From an uncultured Gammaproteobacteria bacterium (GTDB lineage Bacteria; Patescibacteriota; Patescibacteriia; Magasanikbacterales; GWA2-37-8): 64,000 bases of DNA. Position numbers and translations under genes: made by a program. The stretch spans positions 22,869-86,868 of the forward strand of contig CAYUHX010000002.1 in NCBI GenBank assembly GCA_964444705.1, read 5' to 3'. The notes under the pieces were generated by a model. That model was not told the DNA's origin. It did no database searches and worked only from the letters and a program-made list of their open reading frames with translations. This document shows, piece after piece, positions 5,263 to 44,779 of this stretch (position 1 is its first letter; each line of letters begins with the position of its first letter).

Positions 5263-5334
5263 AGCGGGTGAGGGGAGTCGAACCCCTGTCACCAGTTTGG
5301 AAAACTGGGATAATAGCCGTTATATGACACCCGC
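5263..5334 (-). tRNA. tRNA-Gly (anticodon UCC)
   Basis: Reverse complement folds as a cloverleaf. Acceptor GCGGGTG/CACCCGC; D-loop with GG; anticodon stem CCAGT/ACTGG with loop TTTCCAA giving UCC; T-arm AGGGG-TTCGACT-CCCCT; discriminator U. CCA is not encoded. Confidence 0.75.
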
Positions 5335-6179: not shown

Positions 6180-6349
6180 TACCGCGTCGTATGGTTTGAT
6201 ATGAATAGTTGATGGTTCTTTAAAATACTTAAAAGTGTGTGGTGAAGCGAAGAAAGCGCTTGCCCCAGCTGACAAAGGCAGAAATAGTTTGTGTCTTGTT
6301 TAGCTGGAGGCAAAGGCCTCGCAAGCGTTTTCAACCCTGGAGGATCGTC

Positions 6350-6865
6350 ATGAAGCGCAACACGTGTCTGTTCCCCGGTTTCTTCGCCATTGCGGCCGCC
6401 ATCGGCTGCGGCAGTGCCCCTCCTACCGACCAGAACTTCAGCATCCCGGCGCCGGCGGAGTGCGACCAGCGGCAGCTCGAGGTGCGGGGTGACCGCAAGG
6501 TGACTAAGATCGAGTTCCCCGTGCCGAACGCAGGCTCGTACTACGTCGTGCAGAACGGCTACTCCGTCCGGTCCCCCTTCCCGGACGGGTACTACCCCGG
6601 CGTGGATGTGGTCAAGGACAGCTGCGGCAAGCCGGCCGTGAGCATCGACACTAGCGGCGCCTCGGTCTGGGCGAACCCGGGGCAGAAGGTGGGCGCCTGC
6701 CCCAAGGGCGGCGCCCAGCCGAACGGTGGGGCCCAGTGCTACAACTTCGAGGTCGGGCAGGGTGGCGTCATCACGCCGTACCTGGCGCCGCCCACGGACG
6801 AGCAGATCCAGGCGGAGCAGGCGATGGTCGCGGAGATCGCGGCCGAGCAGGCCGCCCAGGAGTAG
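6350..6865 (+). CDS. GC-rich secreted lipoprotein, hypothetical (likely horizontally acquired)
   Basis: MKRNTCLFPGFFAIAAAIGCGS has signal peptide plus lipobox. About 65% GC in an about 40% GC context. GGAGGA SD 7 nt upstream. The track start at 6239 is judged upstream read-through. Confidence 0.55.
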   Translation: MKRNTCLFPGFFAIAAAIGCGSAPPTDQNFSIPAPAECDQRQLEVRGDRKVTKIEFPVPNAGSYYVVQNGYSVRSPFPDGYYPGVDVVKDSCGKPAVSIDTSGASVWANPGQKVGACPKGGAQPNGGAQCYNFEVGQGGVITPYLAPPTDEQIQAEQAMVAEIAAEQAAQE

Positions 6866-7111: not shown

Positions 7112-7579
7112 TTATAGCGAAGGAAATAATTTTCGTTTTAGTCGAGAAAGCCACGATTCATTTTTTCGCTCAAGCAAATACCACATTCCCAAGCCAAAGA
7201 GCGTGGTTGACGTGGCGGCCGAGAGTAAACAATATTGGCAAAAGCTGTGAAGAATAAATGCTTGCAGAAATAAAAACCACAGTGAAGCGAGAAGTCCGGC
7301 GCTAGTGAACCAGGCAAGGTGTTCGAGAATTTTTTCTCGGGCGGTATCAAAATAAAAAAGCGCTCCCACCACAATGCCGAGATAATACAGCGCCCCAAGG
7401 AGCGCGACCGGTATTCCTGCCGCAGTGGCGTAGGGGCTCGTGAGTACACGTTCACAACCTTGCACCACGGAGCAAGGAGGGATGGTTCCTTGAAAATGTT
7501 CAACGGTTAAATAGGTAGCATCGAGAAAGCCCAAAAAACCTACAAAGAGAAAAAGACCAGCAAATTTTTTTGAAGTCAT
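7112..7579 (-). CDS. vitamin K epoxide reductase (VKOR) family protein
   Basis: Multi-TM protein with loop Cys pair CSVVQGC and TM CXXC (CQYC), typical of bacterial VKOR. Immediately followed by DsbA. Confidence 0.7.
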   Translation of the reverse strand: MTSKKFAGLFLFVGFLGFLDATYLTVEHFQGTIPPCSVVQGCERVLTSPYATAAGIPVALLGALYYLGIVVGALFYFDTAREKILEHLAWFTSAGLLASLWFLFLQAFILHSFCQYCLLSAATSTTLFGLGMWYLLERKNESWLSRLKRKLFPSL

Positions 7580-7592
7580 AGCAGGTGTCTGG

Positions 7593-8318
7593 TTATTTGG
7601 TTGAAGAAGGTGTTGTTGCTAGAGAGGAATTGTCGATCGTTTGTTTAATCGCATTTCTAAATTCATCAAAATTTTGGGGCTTTAGACGCACACCATTTAA
7701 AAAGAAAGAAGGTGTGGCATCAACGCCTGCAGCGTTACCACTTTTTTCATCTCGTTCAATATGGGCGGTGAGGTTGCCAGAAGAAAGATCTTTTTGAAAT
7801 TGTTCCACGTTGAGAGGAATTTCGCTGGCCAAACGAATAAATATTTTTTGAGCACCTTCATCGGTTTCGCCTTCCCAACTATTTTGGCTGGCAAATAATT
7901 TGTCATGCATTTCCCAAAATTTTCCTTGGCGTCCTGCAGCTTCAGCAGCCAGTGCTGCCGCTTGGCTATGCGCATGTTGTTGTAGGGGGAAGTGTCGGTA
8001 GACAAAACGCACACGCGTACCAAATTCCGCCATTACACGCACAATGAGAGGTTCAAAGGCGGCACAGGCGGGGCATTGAAAGTCGCTGTATTCAACCACC
8101 GTGACGCGTGACAGCACATTGCCACGTACCCAATCGGTTGATTCAACGGGAGCAAGATTGGCAGGGGTAGTGCTCATTATTGGGGTTTGTCCGCGTTCAC
8201 CAAGTTTGGCAATTCCCCAGATTGACAGAACAATCAATAGTAATACGCCGCCCCACAGCCCAATTCGTTTCCAAGGGATATTTTTTGCAGACGATTGTTT
8301 TTGTGTAGTGGAGGGCAT
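7593..8318 (-). CDS. DsbA-family thiol:disulfide oxidoreductase (membrane-anchored)
   Basis: QCPACAAF (CPAC) thioredoxin-fold active site, HFPL motif and an N-terminal TM anchor. Start chosen at MPSTTQ. The track ORF extends to 8453. Confidence 0.75.
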   Translation of the reverse strand: MPSTTQKQSSAKNIPWKRIGLWGGVLLLIVLSIWGIAKLGERGQTPIMSTTPANLAPVESTDWVRGNVLSRVTVVEYSDFQCPACAAFEPLIVRVMAEFGTRVRFVYRHFPLQQHAHSQAAALAAEAAGRQGKFWEMHDKLFASQNSWEGETDEGAQKIFIRLASEIPLNVEQFQKDLSSGNLTAHIERDEKSGNAAGVDATPSFFLNGVRLKPQNFDEFRNAIKQTIDNSSLATTPSSTK

Positions 8319-8468
8319 AGAAAAGATTAAAAACAAAGTATGTGTAGAAATAGTATCTCTCGAAATTGAAATTAGTTCAATGTGCGCCTTGATTGCTTGG
8401 GCGGTGGCAGACCCTTCTTTTTTTAGAAAGAAAGGCCTGCGAGGCAGAAACAATCGTTGGAGTAGTGG

Positions 8469-9452
8469 TTATTTTTTGAGTTCAGCGTCAATTGCTTGCT
8501 GAAAATCAGAGAGCGGTCGTGCACCGACGACGAGTTTGCCATTTACAAATGTGGCCGGAGTTCCTTGGACACCTTTCGCTACACCTTCTTGGTAATCTTG
8601 TTGCACTTTAGCAGTGAATTTTCCAGAATCAAGACAGGTGTTAAATGTGGTGGCGTTGAGACCAATTTCTTTCGCCCATTGTTTTAAGGATTCAAAGCTT
8701 AGTGCCTGTTGATTTTCAAACACCTTGTCGTGGAATTCCCAGAATTTGTTTTGCTCACCAGCACATTCAGATGCCTCAGCTGCTTTTATCGCATAGGGAT
8801 GAATTTCGCTTAAAGGAAAATGTTTGTAGACGATACGAACTTTGTTGCCATAGGTGGCGGCAATTTGTTTGAGCGTGGGGTAGTGGCGGCTGCAGTAAGG
8901 ACATTGAAAATCAGAAAACTCAACCAAGGTTACAGGCGCATTAAAGCTGCCGAGGATATGATCTTCTTTGGTAATGGTGAACGATTGTACTGGTGGTGGT
9001 GTGTTCGCGTCAGCACCGCTTGGTTGTGGTTGAGCTTGTGCCTGCCCGTTAGGAATAGCGATGGTGTTTGTGCTTGGTCGACGCAGGAGTACTACCGCGA
9101 GAGTGATGTTGATGATCAGCGAGAGTATGCTGAACGCACTCAAAAAACCAACGAACATAAGAGCGGCGGGTGATAAGCTCCAGATGCCATTGTGGGTTGG
9201 GGTAGAGGAAGGGGTTGACATAGGTGAAGGGGTTGGGTCAATTTTTAATGTTTCGTAGGGGCCCGTTTTATGCACGGTGGTTAGAATTACATTTTCGTTC
9301 ACGATGGTTTCATCGTAAGCAGCGGCACCTTTTTTTGATTCAAAATTTACTTTGGCATTGAGCACGCCAGGAATTTGTTTAAGCATTTTCTCAAGCTGCG
9401 CTGCGCCGGCGAGATCAGCAAGGCCAATGATTTGAAACGTGACTTTTTGCAT
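8469..9452 (-). CDS. DsbA-like oxidoreductase with N-terminal cysteine-less HMA-like domain and TM anchor
   Basis: C-terminal FQCPYCSRHYP active site with KHFPL. The N-terminus MQKVTFQIIGLADLAGAAQLEKMLKQIPGV has an HMA-like fold lacking the CxxC. A central TM helix is present. Confidence 0.65.
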   Translation of the reverse strand: MQKVTFQIIGLADLAGAAQLEKMLKQIPGVLNAKVNFESKKGAAAYDETIVNENVILTTVHKTGPYETLKIDPTPSPMSTPSSTPTHNGIWSLSPAALMFVGFLSAFSILSLIINITLAVVLLRRPSTNTIAIPNGQAQAQPQPSGADANTPPPVQSFTITKEDHILGSFNAPVTLVEFSDFQCPYCSRHYPTLKQIAATYGNKVRIVYKHFPLSEIHPYAIKAAEASECAGEQNKFWEFHDKVFENQQALSFESLKQWAKEIGLNATTFNTCLDSGKFTAKVQQDYQEGVAKGVQGTPATFVNGKLVVGARPLSDFQQAIDAELKK

Positions 9453-9483
9453 AGGCAAAAATAAATAAAAAAATAAATTAATA

Positions 9484-11058
9484 TTATAAGGCTTCAATCA
9501 CTCCGTTATACATTCCCATCGAGCAACTAAATTTGTATTTTCCTGGTCGCGTTACTTCAAATTCCTTCACACTCGTTTCTCCCTGGCGTAAAATTATTTT
9601 ATCGTTAAACAGCTCCCTGGCGATAATGACATTTTCACAGCCGCCGGCTCCTTGATCGGTAATTTCCCAGCGCACTGGTTTTCCAGTACGGATTTTAAAG
9701 TAATTAGGAGAATAGGCTCTCGGTATGGCGTTCATTTTGAGAAGTTGTTTTCCGTTGATGAGTGGAGCAAAGGCAGTGCCATCGTCTGCACGAGTGTGTA
9801 CACCAAAAGATAGATCGTTTAGGCTTGGTAATCCGAGTAGATTAAATTCAGAATTGATGGTGTAAAGAGAAAAAAAGAGTACCACAAATCCGGCAACTAA
9901 AGAAAAATAGCGTGAGAAGCGCGGAGTGGAAGCAAAAGAAATACTGCCAAGACCAATTGTAAGCAGAGTGGGGAGGGTGCCTAGGGCAAAGAAAAACATG
10001 ATGAGCCCACCGTGCCAGGCTGCGCCAGAGATAAGTGCAATTCCTTGAACAATGAGAGTGAAGCCACACGGAAGAAAAAAAGTGGCTGCGCCCAAAAAGA
10101 ATGGCATCAATCGACCAGCAAAATTTTTTTCGTCAGTAAGTTGTGTGGTAAATTTTTTTGGCAAATGAAGTTGTATTTTTTGAAAAAAAGGAATTTCTAA
10201 CATTTGCAACGCAAGCACGATCATTAAGAGTGAAACAAAAATAGTGAGAATAGAAGTGGTGGTAAGAGAAGGTGAAATGAGATTTCCTACTGTTCCAAGA
10301 ATCATTCCACCAAGACCATAAGCGGTGAGACGCCCCGCATTAAAAAGTAGGTGAGGTTGCATCCGGCGAAGACTTGAGACCTCGTTACCGTAGGTGGAAG
10401 ACCACTTTTTTGACAAAGAAAGTACGAGCCCGCCTACCAGAGCCGCGCAGGTAGAAAAACTTGCGATAAGACCAAAGATGGTAAAAGAAAAAAGTGAAGA
10501 GGTGTTCGTGAGGGAAAGTCGTGATGCCAATCCTTGAGTGTTTAACCACAAGAAACTAATAAGAAAGATAAATGCGATACAAAAAGCGCGCCACCATTCT
10601 TTGTCTAAAAAAGGCTGGGTCTTTTTTTGAGAGAGAGAAAAATGATAACCCTCATTTTTAAAAAGAGTATCAAGGGAACTGATTTCTGGTGCCGTGCCCG
10701 AGTGAGTGATGGTAAGCGTGCCGTGTGTAGTTGAGGCCTCAACGAGATGCACTCCCGGCAGAGTTGAGATTTTTTTCTCAAGTATGATTTCACAGGCGGC
10801 GCAGTGGAGGCCGGTGACAAAGTACAGCTGTTGTGCAGTAGCTGCAATCTCCTCTTTTTGGAAAGAAATGTTTTTTTCTCGAAGAAGGGTGAGAACTGAA
10901 TTCTTGGCGGTTTCAGAAGCAAAAGAAACAAAACAGCGATTTTTTTTGGGATTAAAACGTATTTCTTTCACTTCTCCAAGAACAGAGAGTTCGGTTTCAA
11001 GAGAAGTGCTGACCTCGACGGAAAGAGGGGGTTCAAAATGCAAAATAATGTGTGTCAT
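9484..11058 (-). CDS. HMA domain - CcdA/DsbD-like (or TauE-like) transmembrane - C-terminal cupredoxin-like domain protein
   Basis: N-terminal GLHCAACEIIL (HMA MxCxxC). About 8 TM helices with conserved Cys in TM segments (FSTCAAL, FLPCGF). C-terminal beta-rich region ends ...KYKFSCSMGMYNGVIEAL. Confidence 0.6.
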   Translation of the reverse strand: MTHIILHFEPPLSVEVSTSLETELSVLGEVKEIRFNPKKNRCFVSFASETAKNSVLTLLREKNISFQKEEIAATAQQLYFVTGLHCAACEIILEKKISTLPGVHLVEASTTHGTLTITHSGTAPEISSLDTLFKNEGYHFSLSQKKTQPFLDKEWWRAFCIAFIFLISFLWLNTQGLASRLSLTNTSSLFSFTIFGLIASFSTCAALVGGLVLSLSKKWSSTYGNEVSSLRRMQPHLLFNAGRLTAYGLGGMILGTVGNLISPSLTTTSILTIFVSLLMIVLALQMLEIPFFQKIQLHLPKKFTTQLTDEKNFAGRLMPFFLGAATFFLPCGFTLIVQGIALISGAAWHGGLIMFFFALGTLPTLLTIGLGSISFASTPRFSRYFSLVAGFVVLFFSLYTINSEFNLLGLPSLNDLSFGVHTRADDGTAFAPLINGKQLLKMNAIPRAYSPNYFKIRTGKPVRWEITDQGAGGCENVIIARELFNDKIILRQGETSVKEFEVTRPGKYKFSCSMGMYNGVIEAL

Positions 11059-11076
11059 AGCAGTGTGAGAATCTTT

Positions 11077-12045
11077 TTAGTGCGAACGGTTTGAAGAACA
11101 AGTTGTTACTTTATCCCATGATGAAAACAAAAGAGGAGTGCTGAGAGTTTGATTAAAGGTGCATTGATGCACTGTCGAAGAAGGTGTTTGGCGGGCAAAA
11201 ACGAGGGGAATAAAAGCTTGGGCAAAAAGTAAAATGCTTGCTATGACCGCAAAAATTGCATACCCAATTTGTCGGAAAGAATGGGGCGTAGCTTTGGTTG
11301 AATTAGTGAGGCGGTCGATGCGAGCTTCGAGCGTCGAAAAAGCAGCCGTGGTGCTCGTAGAAAAAAATGACGTACCTCCAGTTGAAATAATTTTGAGCAG
11401 TGCGCTTCCTAGGGTGTGGGGGGAAACCTCTTTGAGGGCGCCATTGTCGGCCGCAAATTCATGAGCAAGTTCCATTTTTTTAAGAAGGAGTTCGCGTGCA
11501 GGGATATACCACCAGAGTGCTAAGAGGCTGCGCAGTAAAAGTGTGCGGAGGGGATGTTTTTCTTCTTGATGAATTTTTTCGTGCGTGAGAATAGCGGTGA
11601 TTTCTGAAGGGGTGCAGTGTTGAAGTATTCCTTTTGAGAGATAAATGGTAGGTCGAAAAAAACCAATCGTGCAGGCAAAAGAACGTTCGTCATTGGGTAC
11701 ATACACTTGAATATTTGGGGAGGTAAAAGATGCGCTAAAGCTATGGGCGCGAAGTCGTCGTTCAAGACGCGCAGAACGCCAGATTTCAATGAATAAAGAA
11801 TATACTGCGAATATAAGACCGCTTCCAATGAGAAAGAGAGTAGCTAAGAGAGCGCGGTGTCCAGAGCTGATTAAAAAAGAGGTAAAAGAACTAAAGATTC
11901 CTTGGCAGCAAGAAGCAAGAAAATTTTGCCACTCAGTGCGGAGGTAGGTGTTGCCAAAAAAAAGCGCTTTTGCGCCGAGTGCAATTGTGGTTACCAGAAA
12001 AAAAATAAGAATTTTTTGTAGAGAGATGCGTTTGAAAAAAATCAT
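11077..12045 (-). CDS. BlaR1-type M56 family membrane metallopeptidase (sensor-transducer, no penicillin-binding domain)
   Basis: TM helices plus HEKIH (HExxH) zinc motif in M56 context. Directly downstream of a BlaI-family repressor. Confidence 0.65.
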   Translation of the reverse strand: MIFFKRISLQKILIFFLVTTIALGAKALFFGNTYLRTEWQNFLASCCQGIFSSFTSFLISSGHRALLATLFLIGSGLIFAVYSLFIEIWRSARLERRLRAHSFSASFTSPNIQVYVPNDERSFACTIGFFRPTIYLSKGILQHCTPSEITAILTHEKIHQEEKHPLRTLLLRSLLALWWYIPARELLLKKMELAHEFAADNGALKEVSPHTLGSALLKIISTGGTSFFSTSTTAAFSTLEARIDRLTNSTKATPHSFRQIGYAIFAVIASILLFAQAFIPLVFARQTPSSTVHQCTFNQTLSTPLLFSSWDKVTTCSSNRSH

Positions 12046-12046
12046 A

Positions 12047-12475
12047 CTAGTGTGGGTCGAGAGTATCTACAAATTGTTTTAATTTTTTTACTGTTTCTTC
12101 GTCAAGCTCATTTTTCATATCGGCAAAATGAGCGACACTGAAAAGTGATGGATCATGGATGAGAGCACGTAGAAAATGGTGTGCAATCATTTTAGTAAAG
12201 TCTTTGTACGATATTGTGGCGTGGTATAAAAATACACCTTCTTTTTTTTCTTTAGCCAAAAGTTTTTTCTCCACTAGACGGTTCATGACGGTCATGGTGG
12301 CGTTGGTTGAGAGTGGTTTGTAGGCGTGGTGCAAGATGGTGCGCACACCTTGAACTCCTAAACCTTCTTTGTTTTCCCAAATGGCGTGCATGATTTTGGC
12401 TTCCAGTTCACCGAGTACTTTGCCTACTCCTTCTGCGCGGGGGTGGAAAAGCGAAGGAATGAATGAAGTCGCCAT
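12047..12475 (-). CDS. BlaI/MecI/CopY-family transcriptional repressor
   Basis: Winged-helix penicillinase-repressor pattern (MHAIWE...TILHHAYKPLSTNATMTVMNRLVEKKLL). No C-terminal Cys cluster, so BlaI-like rather than metal-binding CopY. Confidence 0.7.
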   Translation of the reverse strand: MATSFIPSLFHPRAEGVGKVLGELEAKIMHAIWENKEGLGVQGVRTILHHAYKPLSTNATMTVMNRLVEKKLLAKEKKEGVFLYHATISYKDFTKMIAHHFLRALIHDPSLFSVAHFADMKNELDEETVKKLKQFVDTLDPH

Positions 12476-12501
12476 AGGGAAAAATAAAAAACAACACCCT
12501 T

Positions 12502-12530
12502 ATAATACTACAGTGTGTAGTGTGATACAA
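12502..12530 (-). promoter_or_regulatory. promoter (TTGTAT-17-TATTAT on minus strand) with embedded TACA-N3-TGTA dyad (candidate BlaI-family operator, 12509..12519)
   Basis: Minus-strand reading cTTGTATcacactacacactgtagTATTAT. The spacer contains TACACACTGTA, which resembles the BlaI/CopY TACAnnTGTA box. Confidence 0.4.
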
Positions 12531-12590
12531 GATGACTCGTGTGGATAAGAAAATATTCTTTTAACAGACACGGGTCGGTGTGTAAGAAAA

Positions 12591-34852: not shown

Positions 34853-35797
34853 TTAAGGCTTCCACAAGTTAATATATTCAATCGCAGCTAATGCCGCAAC
34901 AATGCCCTGGCCGGTGGCAATGCCAATTTGTTTGTAGGGAATGTCCGTGACATCGCCAGCGGCAAAAATGCCGGGCACATTGGTACGGCAGCGGCTATCA
35001 ACCATCAGCTGCCCTTGGGCGTCTTTGGTGAGAAGTGTTGCAAATTGTGAGTTGGGAATCATGCCTATGTGCACCATTACTCCATCAACGGCGAGTTCTT
35101 TGGTTTCACCACCAGCAATACATTTGAGGCCAGTAACTTTTTTATCTCCCAGAATTTCGAGTGTTTTTGCTTCGTAGAGAATTTCTAAGTTTGGATATGT
35201 TTTTAATTTTTCGACTAAAATATTTTCGCCTTTGGGAAAACCCCAGGCCGCTTCTTTGGTGTTTGGGTATTTGGTGAGGAGATATACTTTTTGTGCGATT
35301 CCCACCATCATGAGTGCGGATTCAAGGGCACTATTACCCGCACCAATGGTGGCTGTGGTTTTGTTTCGAAAAAGTGGCCCGTCGCACACGGTGCATGTGG
35401 TAACACCTTTGCGAAGAAGTGATTCTTCGCCCGGCACACCAAGATGTTTGGGGTGAATGCCACTGCCAATGATCACTGCTTTTGTTTCGTAGGTTTTAAT
35501 TTCTCCGTTGCTGTTTTGCGCCGTGACTACATGATAATTTTTTTCTGGAGTGATACTAGTCACTTCTAATCCTTCTTCAATGTCGGCGCCATACGATCGC
35601 ACATGTTCGGTAAATTTTTGTGCCAATTCAAAACCTTGGATAGACAAAATGCCTGGCCAGTTGCCCACTTCACCCGAGAGAGCTACTTCACCACCGAGGT
35701 CTTTGGTGATTATTTTAAAATTAAGTCGTCGGCGGGCTGCATAAATTGCTGCGCTCGAGCCAACCGCCGCGCCGCCGATAATGATAAGATCAAGCAT
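34853..35797 (-). CDS. trxB: thioredoxin-disulfide reductase
   Basis: FAD site IIGGAAVGSSAAIYAARR, redox CTVCDG (CxxC), NAD(P) site GAGNSALE, and C-terminal GIFAAGDV. Confidence 0.85.
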   Translation of the reverse strand: MLDLIIIGGAAVGSSAAIYAARRRLNFKIITKDLGGEVALSGEVGNWPGILSIQGFELAQKFTEHVRSYGADIEEGLEVTSITPEKNYHVVTAQNSNGEIKTYETKAVIIGSGIHPKHLGVPGEESLLRKGVTTCTVCDGPLFRNKTTATIGAGNSALESALMMVGIAQKVYLLTKYPNTKEAAWGFPKGENILVEKLKTYPNLEILYEAKTLEILGDKKVTGLKCIAGGETKELAVDGVMVHIGMIPNSQFATLLTKDAQGQLMVDSRCRTNVPGIFAAGDVTDIPYKQIGIATGQGIVAALAAIEYINLWKP

Positions 35798-38362: not shown

Positions 38363-38550
38363 GGGCTACTCCTGTGCGAGTGGTTTTAAAGGGCGAATGT
38401 TCCCAACTGAGAGGAACAGATGACTCTATCAAATACAAGGCTGTTCAGCAAGTTTTAAATTTAAAAAACCAGATGCAGCCTTTCAACTCAAATTGCATTG
38501 AGACGAAGGGCTAGGGCATCTGGTTTTGTGGCGGAAAGATGTGCTGGACT

Positions 38551-39075
38551 TCAGTTGCAGCCGGCCGGAGTGCAACCACTCGGGCAGTCTTGGGTAGCTG
38601 CGGCGCAGTAGCCTTCGGGCAGGCACTTGCCCGTGGCGTACATCATCACGCCGCCGCCGCTGTAGTTGACGCACTTCTTCACCGTGCCGCTCAGCGAGCA
38701 GCAATCAAGATCGGATCGGCAGGCATTGCACCCTCCGATGACTGCAGTCTCTGGCGGTACGCACAGTTTGGTGCCGTCTTTTTGGGTGTGGCAGTTGGAC
38801 CATCTCCAGCAGCTGGTCACGAAGGGGCACAGCGCCCCTTCCGCCATTCCCTCGCACCGCCGAACCGTGTTCGGTTCGTACGGCCCGGTGCAGAGACCGC
38901 CAAGGTCGATGGTCGGTTGGGACGTCATCAGATCGGCCGGGCTGCCGCCGTCCATGATCGACATGAGGTCGTCGTTGGCAGGGGTGATTCTTGCCATCGA
39001 TCCGTCTGTCGACGGGTTGCAGGCGATGGTGAGAGCAGTCAGTGCTACATAAAGAGACAAACTCGGAGTGCGCAT
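38551..39075 (-). CDS. cysteine-rich secreted lipoprotein, hypothetical, GC-rich
   Basis: MRTPSLSLYVALTALTIAC signal/lipobox. About 20 Cys in about 150 mature residues (CNAC, DCCS, CPSGC). About 63% GC. Confidence 0.5.
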   Translation of the reverse strand: MRTPSLSLYVALTALTIACNPSTDGSMARITPANDDLMSIMDGGSPADLMTSQPTIDLGGLCTGPYEPNTVRRCEGMAEGALCPFVTSCWRWSNCHTQKDGTKLCVPPETAVIGGCNACRSDLDCCSLSGTVKKCVNYSGGGVMMYATGKCLPEGYCAAATQDCPSGCTPAGCN

Positions 39076-39255
39076 TGTGTTCCTTTCGTCGCGCGACGCC
39101 CCTATGGCGCCCGACCCTTTTTCTCGGGTCTAAAAAATGCCTCCCCACACGAGAGACATTGTTTGGATCAGAGATAAGAACGAACGCGTGAATTTAACCC
39201 AAGGAATATCATGAAATACTTAATTAGTCAATTAATATAGGGTGAATATTTCGAT

Positions 39256-40989
39256 TTATTTTTTTTCAGAATTACCACCGTGCGAGCCAGGTGTTCCTTC
39301 ATTGCCGCTTCTTCGGGTGGGAAAAGCCGCTCGTAATTTTGGAACTTCTTTTTTACGAGTAAGTTCGCCCGGAGCTTTTATTTCTCCGGTTTTAAAATAA
39401 TGAACGGCTCGGCCGCGACTTTCCTCATTAAAACCAGTATTAGTAGCATTGGGTTCTAAAAACAGCGCCTGTTTTTCGGGTGGTTCGGAGAAATAGGGTG
39501 CGAGCAGCTCCAGTACTCGTTCTACATTCACTGGTTCGCCGCCGTAATCTTCTAACCCCGCCAGCATTGCTTTGGCTTTTGTTTTAAATTCAGCAAAGCG
39601 TGCAGGTAAACTTCCTCGTACCTCGGCTGAGTCGGTAAAAATAATGGTGAGCGGTTTTCCGAGGCGATCAAGTTGTGAAATTTCTTTTGCCACTTCTTTA
39701 GGAGTAGTAAAAAAACTTTCATCAATTGCTACTAATCCTTTGGTAGAGCGTTCAATTTGCGTGCCCAAGCGTTCCGACCAGTTGGCCACGCCGCCGTCAA
39801 TCGACACATTCAGGCGAGCGAGCGCCAATACCGCGGGTGAAACTGTGGCGGCTGCTCCGGGTTTAGGTTCGGCGCGGGTAAGACGTTGTTGGTCGATTGC
39901 CATTTGCATGCCAAGTTGCTCGGAAAGCAAGGCGCACAGTTCAAGCATGGGGCCAGCCTTGGTGCTGCGGTATGATACAAAGAAAAAATCGAGACCGTTT
40001 TCTTTTAAACGATTGCGCAACTCTTCGCGTAGGCGGGCAACCTTGCCCAAAAATTTTTTGACCACGGCTTGATCGGGAATTGAACGGATATCTGCTGCCA
40101 ATTGTATAATTTCATCAGCCAGCTGTTTCCACGATCCTTTCATTTCGGCTGTGAGTTCTTTAAGAGCAGTCAAACCTTCAGTTGGAGAAAGTGTTTCAGT
40201 TGTAGTTGCGCCCGCTTTTGCTGCTTTCACTTCATCAAAAGTAAAATCATCATCATCATTGAGCACGCGGCCACGGCGAATAAATTCTTGGATAATAGTT
40301 TTTCCTTCTTGTGAGAAAGAGGTAGTGCCATCGGTGGTAATGCGACACGCATTAAGCTTTCTTAGTTTAAGCACTGCATCACTGCCTTGAGTTTTAGCCA
40401 ACTGAGAAAAATAGCCTTCTTTGCCCGGTTTATCGTTGAATTTAGCGAGCTCGGCTTGGGGCCCAAACCATACCATCATAATGGGTTTTTTAGCCGCCTG
40501 CAGGGCCTCCATTTTTTCAATCACCGAATTAAATTCAGCCGGGTTGGTAAAAAATTCAGGTGTAATAAATACGGCCGCATGTGAGCAGGAAGCAATGTCT
40601 GTCGTCGTGCCCACTGCTTCTGCCGAAGTGTGAAAACGATTGCCCAGTTTGGCTGCATTTTTTAATTCGGCATCAAGGCCAGCTTTGAGTTCATTAAAAC
40701 CAACGCGTGCAGACCCCTGTTCGTCGGCAAGGGCGACGCTCGTTTCGTCTAAAGACAGATATAGTCGCGTTGGTCGCCACACCTCTTTATTTTCTCCAAG
40801 GCATACTCTGAGAGCCTCACGTAGCTGTGCCAGGCCACGCAATCGTCTGCTTCTTTCACTGGAATCAAGAAGGGGTGGGGCGTCTTTTAATGCTTCACAT
40901 TTTTGCTGCAAAGCATCAAGTTTTCGATCAATGGCCTCGCGTTGCATTTGTTCGGCCGCCGCCGCACGAGAAGATTCAAAATCGGTCAT
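39256..40989 (-). CDS. protein with two tandem TIR-like domains, each preceded by a coiled-coil segment
   Basis: Internal repeat at aa about 75-180 and aa about 334-456. Unit B: DFFFVSYRS (TIR betaA-like DvFISY) ... GLVAIDESFFTTPKEVAKEI ... KPLTIIFTDSAEV (TIR betaD-like IPIFY.VDPS.V). Unit A: AVFITPEFFTNPAEF ... KPIMMVWFGPQAEL. Confidence 0.5.
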   Translation of the reverse strand: MTDFESSRAAAAEQMQREAIDRKLDALQQKCEALKDAPPLLDSSERSRRLRGLAQLREALRVCLGENKEVWRPTRLYLSLDETSVALADEQGSARVGFNELKAGLDAELKNAAKLGNRFHTSAEAVGTTTDIASCSHAAVFITPEFFTNPAEFNSVIEKMEALQAAKKPIMMVWFGPQAELAKFNDKPGKEGYFSQLAKTQGSDAVLKLRKLNACRITTDGTTSFSQEGKTIIQEFIRRGRVLNDDDDFTFDEVKAAKAGATTTETLSPTEGLTALKELTAEMKGSWKQLADEIIQLAADIRSIPDQAVVKKFLGKVARLREELRNRLKENGLDFFFVSYRSTKAGPMLELCALLSEQLGMQMAIDQQRLTRAEPKPGAAATVSPAVLALARLNVSIDGGVANWSERLGTQIERSTKGLVAIDESFFTTPKEVAKEISQLDRLGKPLTIIFTDSAEVRGSLPARFAEFKTKAKAMLAGLEDYGGEPVNVERVLELLAPYFSEPPEKQALFLEPNATNTGFNEESRGRAVHYFKTGEIKAPGELTRKKEVPKLRAAFPTRRSGNEGTPGSHGGNSEKK

Positions 40990-41224
40990 ACAGGTATAAA
41001 AAATAATTATGGTAGATAGTCAACTACCTTAATACAATCATTCTAAATAATCAATTTGAAAAAACAAAACCCCTATCATTATTGAGAAGGGGTTTCGGAG
41101 CATCAAGTGCTTCTTCAGCCTCTCGTTATTACTACAAAGCGTTTATAGAAATAACGAGTCTGGAGGTTGGAGAGGCGTCGCAGCTCGTCGGTCGTGGACG
41201 GCTGGCCGACCTGGGGCGCTGTCC

Positions 41225-42325
41225 TTAGAGGGCACCGACCCGACGCATAATCTCGATCGCCGCCTTGAGGAGCGCTTCTTCCGTCGCGTTCTGGCGGCGG
41301 TCGTCCAGCCCTTCCTCACCATAAGGACCATGATCCGTCTCGCTCTCAACGTACGCGCTCGCCGCAGGCGTGTGGTCTTCGGGCCAGACGCTGATACCTT
41401 CGAAGCGTTGGTCGCTCCCGAAATCAACCGCCCGGAGCATAAGGACGAGCTCCTCGGCACCGGTTTCCGTCGGGGTGTTATCCATCGCGATGTAGTCGGT
41501 GCTCATGCACCGAACAATCAACGCGGCCCGCTCCCACAGCGACGCAATCTTGGTTGCGGGCGTGTGCTCCGTCACCCGCTCGTAGCGCAGTGGCCTTCCG
41601 CTAAAGTGTGACAGCATCCTCTCGATCATGGTGAGATCGTCCATGGCGTGGTGGAAGAGTACAAGCGGGATCTTGCTCGCCGCGATCTCCGCATCCACCC
41701 GGGTCGCCTCCTTCGCGAGATTGATCTTGTCAGCTCGCACCCCGCCGCGAGTGAGGAGTTTGAAGCCACCGTCCGTTGCTTCCGTATTGATGTTGATACG
41801 ATGCGCATCGGCGTGGGTGGCTGCCAGGTCGGCGGAATCTTTAAGGTTACGTCCCTTGGCGATGCTGATGTAGAACCCCCGTGATGCCCGGGCCGCGACA
41901 TCGTCATATTCCGCTACCTCGTTTCCGAGAAGGAACATGAGACCGTCATTTCCCTCCACCAAGGGCGCTAAGGATGCTGCCCCCCAACACACGTTGGCGA
42001 AGATGCCGAGAACGCTGGGGAATTTTCGGACCAGTCGGGTGAGGTGCGCGGGGACGAGGATGAACGGTTCCCCATCCTCAGTCGTCAGGATGATTTCCGC
42101 TTCATTGCCGTGGCCGATGAAGTGGATGATGTGGGGGCTGAAATCCGTCAGAGCATCGGACAAGGCTTCGAGCGTGCCGTCCGCACAGAAGCGGAATTCA
42201 AACTCGTTCGTTCGTCCAGCCTTTTCAAGGGCGCTGATGATTCTTTCCATCTCCCCCTGGCCCACCTTGTTTGCAGTCTTTGGAATGGCCTCGAACACTA
42301 ATACGCGAATCGGCGGCATGTTCAC
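41225..42325 (-). CDS. CHAT/caspase-like (peptidase C14-fold) domain protein with C-terminal domain of unknown function
   Basis: HIIHFIGHGNE (CHAT HfaGHG motif, His72) and LGIFANVCWGAAS (catalytic Cys113) give the caspase His-Cys dyad spacing. C-terminal 200 aa unassigned. About 62% GC. Confidence 0.55.
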   Translation of the reverse strand: MNMPPIRVLVFEAIPKTANKVGQGEMERIISALEKAGRTNEFEFRFCADGTLEALSDALTDFSPHIIHFIGHGNEAEIILTTEDGEPFILVPAHLTRLVRKFPSVLGIFANVCWGAASLAPLVEGNDGLMFLLGNEVAEYDDVAARASRGFYISIAKGRNLKDSADLAATHADAHRININTEATDGGFKLLTRGGVRADKINLAKEATRVDAEIAASKIPLVLFHHAMDDLTMIERMLSHFSGRPLRYERVTEHTPATKIASLWERAALIVRCMSTDYIAMDNTPTETGAEELVLMLRAVDFGSDQRFEGISVWPEDHTPAASAYVESETDHGPYGEEGLDDRRQNATEEALLKAAIEIMRRVGAL

Positions 42326-42608
42326 CTCTCTGTTGGGATTTCAGAACTGCGGTCTTTGGCGTCCATTACCTGGAGCCTTCCGCAATAGCAACAGGGTTCT
42401 GTATAAACCCTGCTTTTATCGCGAAAGGTGTCAGGCTAGGTTTAGCCCAAGTTCACATTTTTATTTTTAAATTATGAATGAACGGTCGCAGATGTAATCC
42501 ATTCCACATGGCTCATTGATTTTTATGAGCAATCGGGAATGGAGGGGGCCGGCCGGGTGCAGAAGGCACCGGCAGCGAAGAGGCCCCACGTCCATGTGTT
42601 CTTTGTTC

Positions 42609-43652
42609 TTAGGCGGGCTGCGCAGCCGTCGGGGCCGGGCCGGCCCCGACCTGAGCCGTGGACTCGCTCTTGAACCAGGCGCCGGCGTTCGCGAGAAGCG
42701 CCTTCTCGACCAGTTCCACGAGCGCCTTGAGGTCGCTGCCCTCGTCCACCGAGATGGCGAGCGGCTCCAGCACGTTGAGGGTCTGGAGGCAGAGGGCGAG
42801 CCGAAGCTCGTCCTCCGGGCTCTGCCGCGCGGCCGAAGCGACGCCGACCAACCATCCGAGACCCGCGAGCGGCAGCACCGTCTCGAGCACCCCCAGCCCA
42901 CCGTTCAGCCACCAGACGCGGCTGGTGAGCATGGCCAGCTCCTCCTGCTTCTTGCGCAGGTAGGAGAGCTGGCCCTTGTCCACGTCCGTCAGCCTCTCGG
43001 TGACGTAGGTGGCCGGGGTCAGCAGCGCCGTTTTGAGGTTTTTCTCGATGTCAGCCATCTCATCAGAGCTGAGCTTGTCCAGCGCGCAGGTGGGGATGGC
43101 CGCTCCCACCTTGCCGATGAATTCCTCGCGGGTGAGGAGGCTGGCCCTGAACGTGAAGAGGAGGCTCTTGATCTGCTCGGACGCGACCCTGCACAGCTGG
43201 TGCACGCGTCCGTAGCGCGCCACCCCGCCCCGCAGCAGCCCCACCAGAGCAGCCAGTGCTGAAGCGCTGACCGCCGGGTGCCAGGCGTGCCAGGGGATGA
43301 GGTGGAAGCCGCAGGCCGCGATGAGCATGGTGAGAGGCAGGAGCACAATCGCTCGGCGTCGCCAACGCACGGGCTTCTCAAGCGGCGTCAGCCCCACCAC
43401 GAGGGTGAGAAGCAGGGCGCCGATGAGCGTCTCGTTGGGTAGCCAGTTCTTGGTCGCCAAGACGGCCGCCAGCACCACGATGGGCGCCAGCACCTTGACG
43501 AGGCGGTTGAGGCGCTGGGCCATGGCGTCAGCGCGACTCGCAGTCTTGCTGCACTCGCGCTGCTTGGTCGCCGCGTGCCGCAGCGCTTGGACATTGCCAG
43601 TTGTCGGGGTGTACGGTTTCGTCGCAGGAGTCGTCGGGTCGTCCATCTGCAC
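42609..43652 (-). CDS. multi-pass membrane protein (4 N-terminal TM + 1-2 C-terminal TM), hypothetical effector
   Basis: Hydrophobic helices LVKVLAPIVVLAAVLA, LIGALLLTLVVGL, AIVLLPLTMLIAACGF and WWLNGGLGVLETVLPLAGLGWLVGVASAA. About 65% GC. An AT-rich promoter region lies upstream. Confidence 0.45.
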   Translation of the reverse strand: MQMDDPTTPATKPYTPTTGNVQALRHAATKQRECSKTASRADAMAQRLNRLVKVLAPIVVLAAVLATKNWLPNETLIGALLLTLVVGLTPLEKPVRWRRRAIVLLPLTMLIAACGFHLIPWHAWHPAVSASALAALVGLLRGGVARYGRVHQLCRVASEQIKSLLFTFRASLLTREEFIGKVGAAIPTCALDKLSSDEMADIEKNLKTALLTPATYVTERLTDVDKGQLSYLRKKQEELAMLTSRVWWLNGGLGVLETVLPLAGLGWLVGVASAARQSPEDELRLALCLQTLNVLEPLAISVDEGSDLKALVELVEKALLANAGAWFKSESTAQVGAGPAPTAAQPA

Positions 43653-43870
43653 CTCTTTCAGGGGTGTGGGGTTACAGGAAAAACAAATCTCTAAATAACC
43701 ATCTTATAAAGAAACACATGGATTGTAATGAGCAAAATCAGTAGGAATCTGAAAATGATGTACTACCAAACCTTTTTCAAATTCTTAAGCTGAATTTTAA
43801 GTGAGAGAGAGTTTTTAGAGAAGAAAAATTAAGTGAATGAAGAAGAAAAAAATTGAAAATTTCTGGGGGG

Positions 43871-43916
43871 CCTGATCGCCGTCGTCTGCGCGTGGGGCAG
43901 GGCGACGGCGATCAGG
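43871..43916. terminator. 14-bp perfect inverted repeat hairpin (terminator between convergent or adjacent island genes)
   Basis: cctgatcgccgtcg-tctgcgcgtggggcaggg-cgacggcgatcagg. Confidence 0.45.
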
Positions 43917-43958
43917 TGGTCTTCTGTACGCGCACGGGGGTGAGATGAGGTAGCGGGC

Positions 43959-44441
43959 CTAGCCGCCGCGGATGCTACCGTCGCGGAGCTGATCGTCCTC
44001 GTCGCGCGAGGGGCGGCCGTTCAGTGGCTCGTCGATGCAGCGCAGGTGCTCGTCCCGGCAGCGGTGGCTGTTGTCCAGCTCGAGGAGCTTGCTCAGCTCG
44101 ATCGCCGGGAAGCTGGACGTCCAGCTCAGCCGCCAGCCGTTGCTGTGCCAGGCGGCGACCACCGCCTTCTCCACCTCGGGGTGGCTCATCAGCTCGATGA
44201 GCTGCTGCGCCTTGTCCCGGTGCAGGTCACCGCCGAGGCCGATGAACATCGACCCTCGGTCCTGGTCCTCCATCTGCATGAAGAAGGTGATGAGCGGGTT
44301 GGCCCGCCGCACCATCTCCTGCACCTCGTGGGCGGTCAGGGGCCGCGGCTTGGGCCGGTGCGCGTCGGGGATGCCGTCCCCGTTCGCGTCGGGGAAGGTG
44401 CTGCCCGGTGAAGTTGTTTCACGATCAGGGTTCCAAGGCAT
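43959..44441 (-). CDS. GC-rich hypothetical protein with DGDGIPD (thrombospondin type-3-like Ca-binding) motif
   Basis: Start chosen at MPWNPD with GGAGGA SD 6 nt upstream. The track ORF extends to 44543. About 65% GC. Confidence 0.4.
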   Translation of the reverse strand: MPWNPDRETTSPGSTFPDANGDGIPDAHRPKPRPLTAHEVQEMVRRANPLITFFMQMEDQDRGSMFIGLGGDLHRDKAQQLIELMSHPEVEKAVVAAWHSNGWRLSWTSSFPAIELSKLLELDNSHRCRDEHLRCIDEPLNGRPSRDEDDQLRDGSIRGG

Positions 44442-44779
44442 GGGTCGTCCTCCAACAGTGCATCGCCGTGGTTTCTCACAACACAAACGCTTGTGGGCGC
44501 TGTGTTCCCTATCGCCGGCGTGCGACAAGGGTAATAAACTCAAAAAAATGTAAGTTTAGTATCCTTGCCACATTTTCGGCGACACTGCGTACAAAAGAGT
44601 TATTTTTGGCTAATTTATCTGTAGTGGATAAAAAAGACACGAAAATAACTATTCATTATAGCATATTTTTACTCGTTTGTCAACGGAACCATGCGGACAA
44701 AATTTTTATATCCTGCACCATTGAATAGTTTAAAAATTATGCTATAGTGGCTAAGTATATACTTATTTTATCTTAATAT

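Follow-up and report, generated by a model that had tools for sequence, protein, structure and literature searches.

Organization of the locus

The window analysed in this study is a 64,000-nt stretch of contig CAYUHX010000002.1 (positions 22,869 to 86,868 of the forward strand; GenBank assembly GCA_964444705.1) from a bacterium of the Candidate Phyla Radiation (CPR; i.e. a Parcubacteria-type organism). An examination of its open reading frames (ORFs) identified six co-directional ORFs on the minus strand, spanning positions 12475-7112. In order of transcription, these encode a BlaI-type repressor, a BlaR1-like membrane zinc protease, a membrane protein of a family referred to here as D2C, an HMA-like-DsbA fusion, a second DsbA and a VKOR. 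The unit is flanked by RecA, FtsK and other housekeeping genes, and the closest relatives of gene 3 were found in Parcubacteria and other CPR genomes and in some Chloroflexi. The features described below make it reasonably probable that the unit is a copper-responsive proteolytic switch, similar to the PetR/PetP pair of Synechocystis, driving an envelope copper/thiol module.

Domains were called with Pfam and NCBIfam, and the Pfam matches lay above the gathering thresholds with the exception of the HMA match in gene 4. Two start codons were corrected. The ORF of gene 4 (9497-8469) most likely starts at M16 (position 9452), as judged from the N-termini of 17 related fusions in an alignment, and that of gene 5 (8453-7593) most likely starts at M46 (position 8318) and not at the TTG at 8453, the signal-anchor beginning past M46. 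With these starts, the intergenic spacings from gene 1 to gene 6 were 1, 18, 31, 150 and 13 nt.

A sole strong intrinsic terminator was detected in the unit, after the VKOR gene (7084-7048, minus strand). It consists of a 16-17-bp stem followed by UUUUUAUUUU, had an RNA folding energy of -22.5 kcal/mol (z = -8.33), and is bidirectional and shared with a convergent gene. The 150 nt separating the two DsbA genes (8468-8319) had a folding energy of -34.7 kcal/mol (z = -4.25) and contain a 14-bp hairpin on the minus strand (8440-8407) that may act in attenuation, in RNA stability or as a weak terminator. No minus-strand promoter-like site was found in this gap by a promoter scan, and neither a second operator nor a convincing promoter was found in any internal gap of the unit. 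A search of Rfam in and near the unit detected no riboswitch or other RNA, the only match being a tRNA-Gly at 5263-5334. Genes 1-4 are securely assigned to a single transcript, and genes 5 and 6 (i.e. DsbA2 and VKOR) are probably carried on the same transcript. An original prediction, made from the sequence of this locus, had proposed one operon of six minus-strand genes. The genes, their order and all of the domain assignments, including VKOR and the DsbD-like protein, were confirmed, with the HMA domain of gene 4 being sub-threshold; the operon itself stands firmly for the first four genes and as a probability for the last two, given the hairpin-containing gap and the position of the terminator.

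A repressor and a membrane protease without a penicillin-binding domain

Gene 1 (12475-12047, minus strand) encodes a 142-aa winged-helix repressor of the BlaI/MecI family (Penicillinase_R, 75.7 bits against a cut-off of 22.6; E = 4.6e-21), residues 25-137 of which matched Staphylococcus aureus BlaI (1sd4) with an E-value of 1.1e-6. Residues H116-F117 aligned with the scissile N101-F102 of BlaI, and relatives carry either Q-F or H-F at this position. The CxCx4CxC metal site of CopY is absent and, because the protein contains no cysteines, it is not a direct metal sensor of the CopY type.

Gene 2 (12045-11077, minus strand), whose start codon is separated by 1 nt from the stop codon of blaI, encodes a 322-aa M56/M48 membrane zinc protease (Peptidase_M56, 58.4 bits against a cut-off of 31; M48, 37 bits). 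The catalytic motif (i.e. H155-E-K-I-H159, HExxH, together with E196) was present, residues H155, E156, H159, E196 and D200 were invariant, and the family profile matched BlaR1 (8exp) with an E-value of 1.1e-5. The protein ends ~38 residues past its last transmembrane (TM) helix and the penicillin-binding sensor domain is absent, as originally predicted; the score against the NCBIfam model blaR1_generic was 37.7 as compared to a cut-off of 400.

Topology was predicted from an AlphaFold2 model (predicted local distance difference test score, pLDDT, of 72.6, with low values in the loop and tail) combined with charge bias. A predicted external loop contains C46-C47 and H62, and a predicted external tail contains C295 and C316. 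The 61 closest representatives of the subfamily share a loop motif, C-G-C...H-P, in which the cysteines were present in 60 and 61 of the 61 sequences and the histidine in 46, and a tail with four cysteines, each present in 52-59 representatives. All five of the above residues are retained by the window protease, and a small Cys/His ectodomain is predicted to replace the beta-lactam sensor domain on the outer face. The M56 protein alone as query retrieved no relatives from metagenome contigs and only itself in a word-indexed protein search. Relatives were found through a census of loci centred on D2C (see below) and then with a six-sequence profile; in an exhaustive profile search, ~1,200 clusters at 50% identity reached E <= 1e-30 with the subfamily profile.

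A conserved dyad in the blaI promoter

A sigma-70-like promoter (12530-12502, minus strand), missed by a strict consensus scan, was recognised on inspection of the sequence 27 nt ahead of the blaI ATG. The -35 hexamer TTGTAT (12530-12525) and the -10 hexamer TATTAT (12507-12502) are separated by a 17-nt spacer. Within this spacer, and touching the first base of the -10 hexamer, is the dyad ACTACAcacTGTAGT (12521-12507), a candidate BlaI site of the TACA...TGTA type (i.e. ACTACA-N3-TGTAGT) that overlaps blaI's own promoter. The perfect sequence CTACA-N3-TGTAG occurs in one copy in the 64 kb. No match to the exact cop-box, TACAnnTGTA, was found in the window, where the spacer of the dyad is 3 nt.

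The same dyad was located 33-60 nt upstream of blaI in four of the related loci (L019, L080, L098 and L106; locus numbers refer to the loci compared below). A second copy, either perfect or with 1 mismatch, precedes the genes downstream of M56 in L032, L052, L080, L098, L106, L107 and L108, and this second site was preceded by a TTGAC -35 sequence in 7/7 relatives examined (one mismatch allowed). Across 1.31 Mb of loci, CTAC[AG]-N0-5-TGTAG showed no overall excess (13 copies as compared to ~15 expected). Nine of these 13 copies belong to the ten BlaI loci, where the dyad is confined to two positions, one ahead of blaI and the other following M56, before the next gene. BlaI is tied to the downstream genes because, in the relatives, the second operator sits ahead of them. 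The window contains one copy of the dyad and no second site between M56 and D2C; with a single operator and only 18 nt between these two genes, the effectors of the window must therefore be read from the blaI promoter. The presence of a BlaI-type dyad operator inside the promoter supports the BlaI/BlaR1-type derepression circuit that had been proposed for this locus.

A 9-mer, TGTGGATAA, which is the reverse complement of the DnaA-box consensus TTATCCACA, was observed at 12540-12548 of the window. In L032 (position 2587), L080 (7912), L106 (4112), L107 (7081) and L108 (5886), it precedes the second BlaI operator by ~35 nt; the copy in the window is inverted and lies ~10 nt upstream of the -35 hexamer. 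This element first looked specific but was ruled out as such by its general frequency in CPR loci, with 44 copies in 1.31 Mb as compared to ~10 expected, often at the D2C/copA junction. The 9-mer is probably a general promoter-proximal element.

The D2C membrane protein

Gene 3 (11058-9484, minus strand) encodes a protein of 524 aa (HMA, 36.5 bits; DsbD_2, 100.5 bits; DsbD_TM, 32.4 bits; Cupredoxin_1, 28.7 bits). The name D2C is given here to its family, which comprises >2,100 uncharacterised proteins that are usually, and wrongly, annotated as 'sulfite exporter TauE/SafE'. No experimental work on this family was found in the literature. The protein has a degenerate HMA domain (residues 1-70), an HMA domain with C86-A-A-C89, seven TM helices and a C-terminal cupredoxin. 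In an AlphaFold2 model (pLDDT 79.7), C204 and P330-C331-G332 of the DsbD_2 core are positioned at helix breaks. This matches the six-TM core of CcdA/DsbD-clan thiol-disulfide transporters, in which TM1 and TM4 each contain an essential cysteine. The Cu(I) ligands of the cupredoxin are C474 and C512-S-M514-G-M516 (i.e. C...CxMxM). Residues C204, C331, C474, C512 and M516 were invariant in 141/141 D2C homologues and M514 was present in 140.

The relationship of the C-terminal domain to CupA was evident from both structure and sequence. A Foldseek comparison of the AlphaFold2 model with CupA (4f2e) gave a template-modelling (TM) score of 0.90 and a root-mean-square deviation of 2.0 A, and a profile of this domain matched CupA (E = 7.3e-13) and the metal-binding domain of Streptococcus pneumoniae CopA (E = 2.7e-12) in the PDB, with the next match at 1.5e-4. 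All four of the Cu(I) ligands of CupA aligned with residues of the D2C cupredoxin. Charge bias predicted that the HMA domains are inside and the cupredoxin outside. The cytoplasmic location of CupA on an N-terminal anchor is not shared by D2C, in which the cupredoxin follows the seven TM helices. A D2C profile (alignment A1) had no match at E <= 1 to the solved CcdA/DsbD chains.

Two further observations concern this family. Many of the D2C homologues in alignment A1 have an additional C-terminal tail past the cupredoxin, with the consensus PSGAxGCGCGGGxxGSC, that is not present in the protein of the window. Elsewhere in the window (34853-35797, minus strand), a thioredoxin-reductase-like flavoprotein (Pyr_redox_2, 314 aa) is encoded and is a possible source of cytoplasmic reductant if D2C carries electrons.

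DsbA proteins and VKOR

Gene 4 (minus strand, corrected start 9452) encodes an HMA-like domain, a single TM helix and a DsbA domain (Thioredoxin_4, 111 bits; DSBA, 95.8 bits). The HMA-like domain scored 22.9 bits, under the cut-off of 24.8, and contains no cysteines, in agreement with the original prediction. Gene 5 (minus strand, corrected start 8318) encodes a second membrane-anchored DsbA (Thioredoxin_4, 104.8 bits) with 37% identity to the DsbA domain of gene 4. The active sites are CPYC and CPAC, respectively, and both proteins have a T-P cis-Pro loop and a single TM helix. Relatives of gene 4 in the PDB were the DsbA entries 4pwp and 4pwo, BdbD (3eu3) and ScsC (4gxz; E = 8e-13). Charge bias predicted an N-in/C-out orientation for gene 5. 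For the HMA-TM-DsbA family (15 proteins), the K/R counts were 43 on the N-terminal side and 34 on the C-terminal side, which does not settle the orientation; an HMA-in/DsbA-out arrangement was assumed because no signal peptide is present. Fourteen of 18 HMA-TM-DsbA fusions, a set that includes the window's protein, keep the CxxC of the HMA domain, which was lost in the window and in one other lineage. The cysteine-less fusion had been put forward as unusual: loss of the CxxC is indeed uncommon, but the fusion itself is a recurrent family.

Gene 6 (7579-7112, minus strand) encodes a 155-aa VKOR (86.2 bits; E = 2.9e-24) with four TM helices, a loop cysteine pair (C36/C42) and a CxxC in the last helix (C114-Q-Y-C117). 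A match to Synechococcus VKOR (4nv6) was obtained with an E-value of 1.2e-5, and both catalytic cysteine pairs were aligned. Members of the VKOR family use a quinone as electron acceptor. Metagenome-assembled genomes of Patescibacteria are reported to be almost universally devoid of complexes I-IV of the electron transport chain (PMC8672522).

A plus-strand ORF (6239-6865) converges on the bidirectional terminator of the VKOR gene. This ORF is G+C-rich, has a lipobox-like signal (...AAAIGCGS) and had no Pfam match.

Genomic context of D2C and of the BlaI-M56 pair

The neighbourhoods of 105 D2C loci (i.e. 20 species genomes, 5 looked-up contigs and 80 metagenome contigs) were examined by scoring neighbouring genes with reference proteins. 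CsoR was encoded immediately upstream of D2C in 80 loci and a P-type ATPase was present nearby in 84, with the Cu(I) signature CPC/YN/MxxSS being found in 74 of 78 neighbouring ATPases. Small HMA chaperones were observed in 24 loci and DsbA-like genes in 22, most of the latter being HMA-TM-DsbA fusions like gene 4. D2C and the tethered DsbA are regular members of CPR cop operons. Proteins with HMA and DsbD_2 domains have also been predicted, in a computational study, to be members of the CsoR regulon in gut Firmicutes (PMC4938975). Mercury resistance was considered for the window on the basis of weak MerP/MerTP matches and rejected, these matches reflecting generic HMA similarity, with no MerA and with the Cu(I) signature prevailing among the ATPases.

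A BlaI-M56 pair without a detected CsoR was present in five of the 105 loci. In four of these (L032, L052, L080 and L098), the pair occupies the slot of CsoR directly upstream of D2C...CopA; in L019, whose cluster contains a TlpA-like reductase, the pair is upstream of D2C on the opposite strand (i.e. divergent). In a sixth BlaI-M56/D2C locus, L106, CsoR-FtrD-SHOCT-CopZ is followed by BlaI-M56-D2C-x-HMA-DsbA, the latter part having the order seen in the window, and in L109 the pair is located beside genes for COX, CtaG, SCO1 and a cupredoxin. Among the loci compared, the DsbA-VKOR tail is unique to the window's locus. The original prediction had left the inducing signal as either envelope thiol or copper stress; the CupA-type cupredoxin, the csoR-...-copA context of the family and the presence of BlaI-M56 in the CsoR slot favour copper, and thiol stress is the less favoured part of that proposal.

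Several other features of these loci were noted. Downstream of BlaI-M56 in L107 (7182-8244) and L108 (5951-7022) are pairs of proteins with a common C-terminal motif, ...(N/D)LP(N/G)MVGGC; in each pair, SCE(Y/F)CC...ACGCAHS is an additional feature of the larger member. Their neighbours encode double CxDC thioredoxin-like proteins, DUF1573 proteins with (S/T)TSCxCT and small GCxSCG-containing TM proteins. These genes have the appearance of an uncharacterised surface module, rich in cysteine and placed under a switch of the same kind. A protein of ~136 aa with no Pfam match is encoded beside D2C in 10/105 loci (e.g. L001, 5030-5440, between CsoR and D2C) and is absent from the window. In the window itself, positions 38500-44500 have a G+C content of 0.50-0.60 as compared to 0.41-0.47 elsewhere, with several ORFs of 190-580 aa that lack a Pfam match and ORFs that overlap on both strands; this region may be foreign DNA.

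Proposed mechanism and alternative explanations

In the resting state, BlaI would occupy its site within the single promoter's spacer, keeping the whole unit, blaI included, switched off. Copper at the cell surface would act on the Cys/His residues in the loop and tail of the protease, either as a bound ion or by copper-driven thiol oxidation, and the activated cytoplasmic zinc-protease domain would then cut BlaI, probably at H116-F117, so that the operon is derepressed. D2C would present a Cu(I)-chaperone domain at each membrane face (i.e. the CxxC-containing HMA inside and the cupredoxin outside), with the DsbD_2 core, which has an invariant cysteine per half, linking the two, and may carry either Cu(I) or electrons. 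The HMA-TM-DsbA protein would be induced as a membrane-tethered DsbA-like oxidoreductase. DsbA2 and VKOR would probably be induced too, with VKOR reoxidising DsbA. Such a module would handle Cu(I) outside the cell and repair or prevent copper damage to the thiols of exported proteins. The BlaI/protease pair most likely senses copper and not antibiotics. A parallel is PetR, a BlaI-type repressor of Synechocystis, the degradation of which by a sensor-less M48/M56 protease requires copper (bioRxiv 10.1101/2020.07.31.226407). A precedent for copper-induced Dsb genes is provided by DsbRS-dsbDEG of Pseudomonas aeruginosa (10.1101/2020.08.17.255257).

Several results weigh against a copper switch of this kind. 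CopA, CopZ and CsoR were not found in the 64-kb window by tblastn. The conserved external cysteines of the protease are even in number, and structural disulfides, a redox sensor or a metal site would account for this equally well. PetP has two conserved methionines, its proposed copper ligands, in the external loop ahead of the last N-terminal TM helix; these are absent from the window protease, with Cys/His being found instead. The window operator differs from that of PetR (GACN5GTC). Members of this M56 subfamily are also encoded ahead of clusters in which no cop genes are recognisable (L107 and L108), although the products of these clusters are rich in CxxC/CxC. Both the first HMA-like domain of D2C and the HMA-like domain of gene 4 are devoid of cysteines, no VKOR was detected in those related D2C and BlaI-M56 loci that were screened for it, and the 150-nt gap with its hairpin lies ahead of DsbA2.

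The main alternative for the signal is the thiol-disulfide status of the envelope: the external cysteines of the protease would be substrates of DsbA and VKOR, and their reduction or mis-oxidation would call for more oxidative-folding machinery in a homeostatic loop. The even set of cysteines (2 + 4), conserved across the subfamily as for disulfides, is in accord with this explanation, as are the two DsbA genes and VKOR downstream, at the window's locus only, and the TlpA-like or thioredoxin-like genes and Cys-rich surface proteins of other BlaI-M56 loci. A pure redox signal leaves unexplained the Cu(I) ATPases and copper chaperones among the genes regulated in relatives, however, and the conserved histidine beside the loop cysteines suggests a metal site. 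PetRP, the only characterised sensor-less pair, responds to copper. The two signals may be inseparable, since copper oxidises thiols; overall, thiol-redox sensing was judged unlikely. Far less credible, to the point of being negligible, is a classical beta-lactam-sensing BlaR1/BlaI that adjoins metal genes by chance. Both regulators belong to the appropriate families, but the early end of the protease and its low blaR1_generic score stand against this explanation, as does the finding that no beta-lactamase or PBP2a-like gene is encoded within the unit; sensing of beta-lactams was rejected since the sensor domain is missing.

Two further alternatives concern the extent of the unit and the role of D2C. 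The unit might consist of a regulated part (BlaI-M56-D2C-HMA-DsbA) and a housekeeping pair, DsbA2-VKOR, with its own transcription, an arrangement that is compatible with either signal. The gap with a stable hairpin before DsbA2 and the lack of VKOR in the screened relatives are consistent with this division, and adjacent VKOR and DsbA genes are a standard stand-alone pair elsewhere, reportedly in Mycobacterium tuberculosis for instance. In contrast, the gap contains neither a promoter-like site nor a BlaI operator, the hairpin lacks a U-tract, the sole strong terminator follows VKOR and the six genes are tightly spaced on one strand, leaving a separate housekeeping pair as a real but lesser possibility. 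A slightly stronger case, if still short of an even chance, can be made for D2C being a CcdA/ScsB-like electron conduit that uses cytoplasmic reducing power to keep the cupredoxin cysteines and/or the tethered DsbA reduced, giving an Scs-like copper-tolerance pair beside an oxidising DsbA2-VKOR. Evidence for an electron conduit comes from the Pfam assignment of the core to DsbD_2 and DsbD_TM, the CcdA-like invariant cysteine at a helix break in each half, the DsbA-like gene downstream of D2C in 22 of the 105 loci, the match of the tethered DsbA domain to ScsC and the TlpA-like reductase of the L019 cluster. Conversely, both soluble ends of D2C have Cu(I)-chaperone folds and not thioredoxin folds, the D2C profile failed to match solved CcdA/DsbD chains, and the DsbD_2 family is also annotated as a UreH-like metal permease. 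A more elaborate proposal is that D2C is an ATP-independent copper conduit, with transfer from HMA through the two membrane cysteines to the cupredoxin, in which oxidation of the external site by DsbA/VKOR would expel the metal and give direction, and in which M56 would read copper or thiols via a disulfide/His ectodomain. Such self-contained export and repair is regarded as quite improbable.

Comparison with known systems

Under the favoured explanation of a copper-responsive switch, the closest parallel is PetR/PetP of Synechocystis sp. PCC 6803, which switches between plastocyanin and cytochrome c6. Both systems have a repressor without the CopY cysteine motif, a protease of ~300 aa (M48/M56) without a penicillin-binding domain, adjacent and translationally coupled genes and a link to copper proteins. 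The window's system belongs to another phylum and its targets are an envelope copper/thiol module and not petE/petJ. The protease also has an added Cys-bearing tail in addition to the Cys/His loop, and a copper response is a prediction in this case.

The repressor fold, the TACA/TGTA dyad over the promoter, the gluzincin HExxH...E between TM helices and the aromatic residue at the scissile N-F position are shared with BlaI/BlaR1 and MecI/MecR1 of Staphylococcus. Unlike those systems, the window has no extracellular acyl-enzyme sensor and no controlled resistance gene, and its dyad has a 3-nt spacer. CopY of Enterococcus and Streptococcus belongs to the same repressor family and controls copper genes from a cop-box-type dyad, but CopY senses Cu(I) through its C-terminal CxCx4CxC, whereas the window repressor is Cys-free and paired with a protease.

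The cupredoxin of D2C resembles CupA and the CopA metal-binding domain of S. pneumoniae in fold (TM scores of 0.90 and 0.87, respectively) and in its C...CxMxM ligands. CupA is, in contrast, an N-terminally anchored cytoplasmic chaperone, whereas the cupredoxin of D2C is C-terminal to seven TM helices and has a predicted outward orientation. Similarities to CcdA/DsbD/ScsB with ScsC include the DsbD-clan core with one cysteine per repeat, the adjacent DsbA/ScsC-like oxidoreductase and the link to copper tolerance. The flanking domains of D2C differ in being metal chaperones and not thioredoxin or Ig-like redox domains, and the host is presumably monoderm. D2C is also a regular member of csoR-copZ-copA operons in CPR and Chloroflexi; COG2836 proteins (HMA+DsbD_2+DUF2318) are predicted members of the CsoR regulon. 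The window departs from this pattern in having no CsoR or CopA nearby, with BlaI-M56 as the regulator and DsbA-VKOR appended. A complete VKOR active site beside a membrane-anchored DsbA is typical of the VKOR-DsbA pairs of Actinobacteria and Cyanobacteria, but the lineage of the window is usually without respiratory chains. The notion of copper stress inducing Dsb genes is shared with dsbDEG/DsbRS of P. aeruginosa, with a different type of regulator.

Implications

Sensor-less BlaR1-like proteases are very numerous and only PetP has a known signal. The locus described here represents a second, independent lineage linked to copper genes and, with a defined operator and an external Cys/His set, offers a model for sensing without a sensor domain. 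In CPR bacteria, D2C accompanies CopA almost invariably and represents an unstudied family of copper proteins. With chaperone domains on both flanks of its DsbD-like core, D2C prompts one to ask if metal, and not electrons alone, could pass through cores of the DsbD type, and the presence of VKOR in a lineage without respiratory chains raises the question of its electron acceptor. Experiments would be most worthwhile on the D2C family and on the protease's Cys/His ectodomain. Were D2C to act as a copper conduit, bacteria without respiratory chains would have, in this unit, a copper export and repair system complete in itself.

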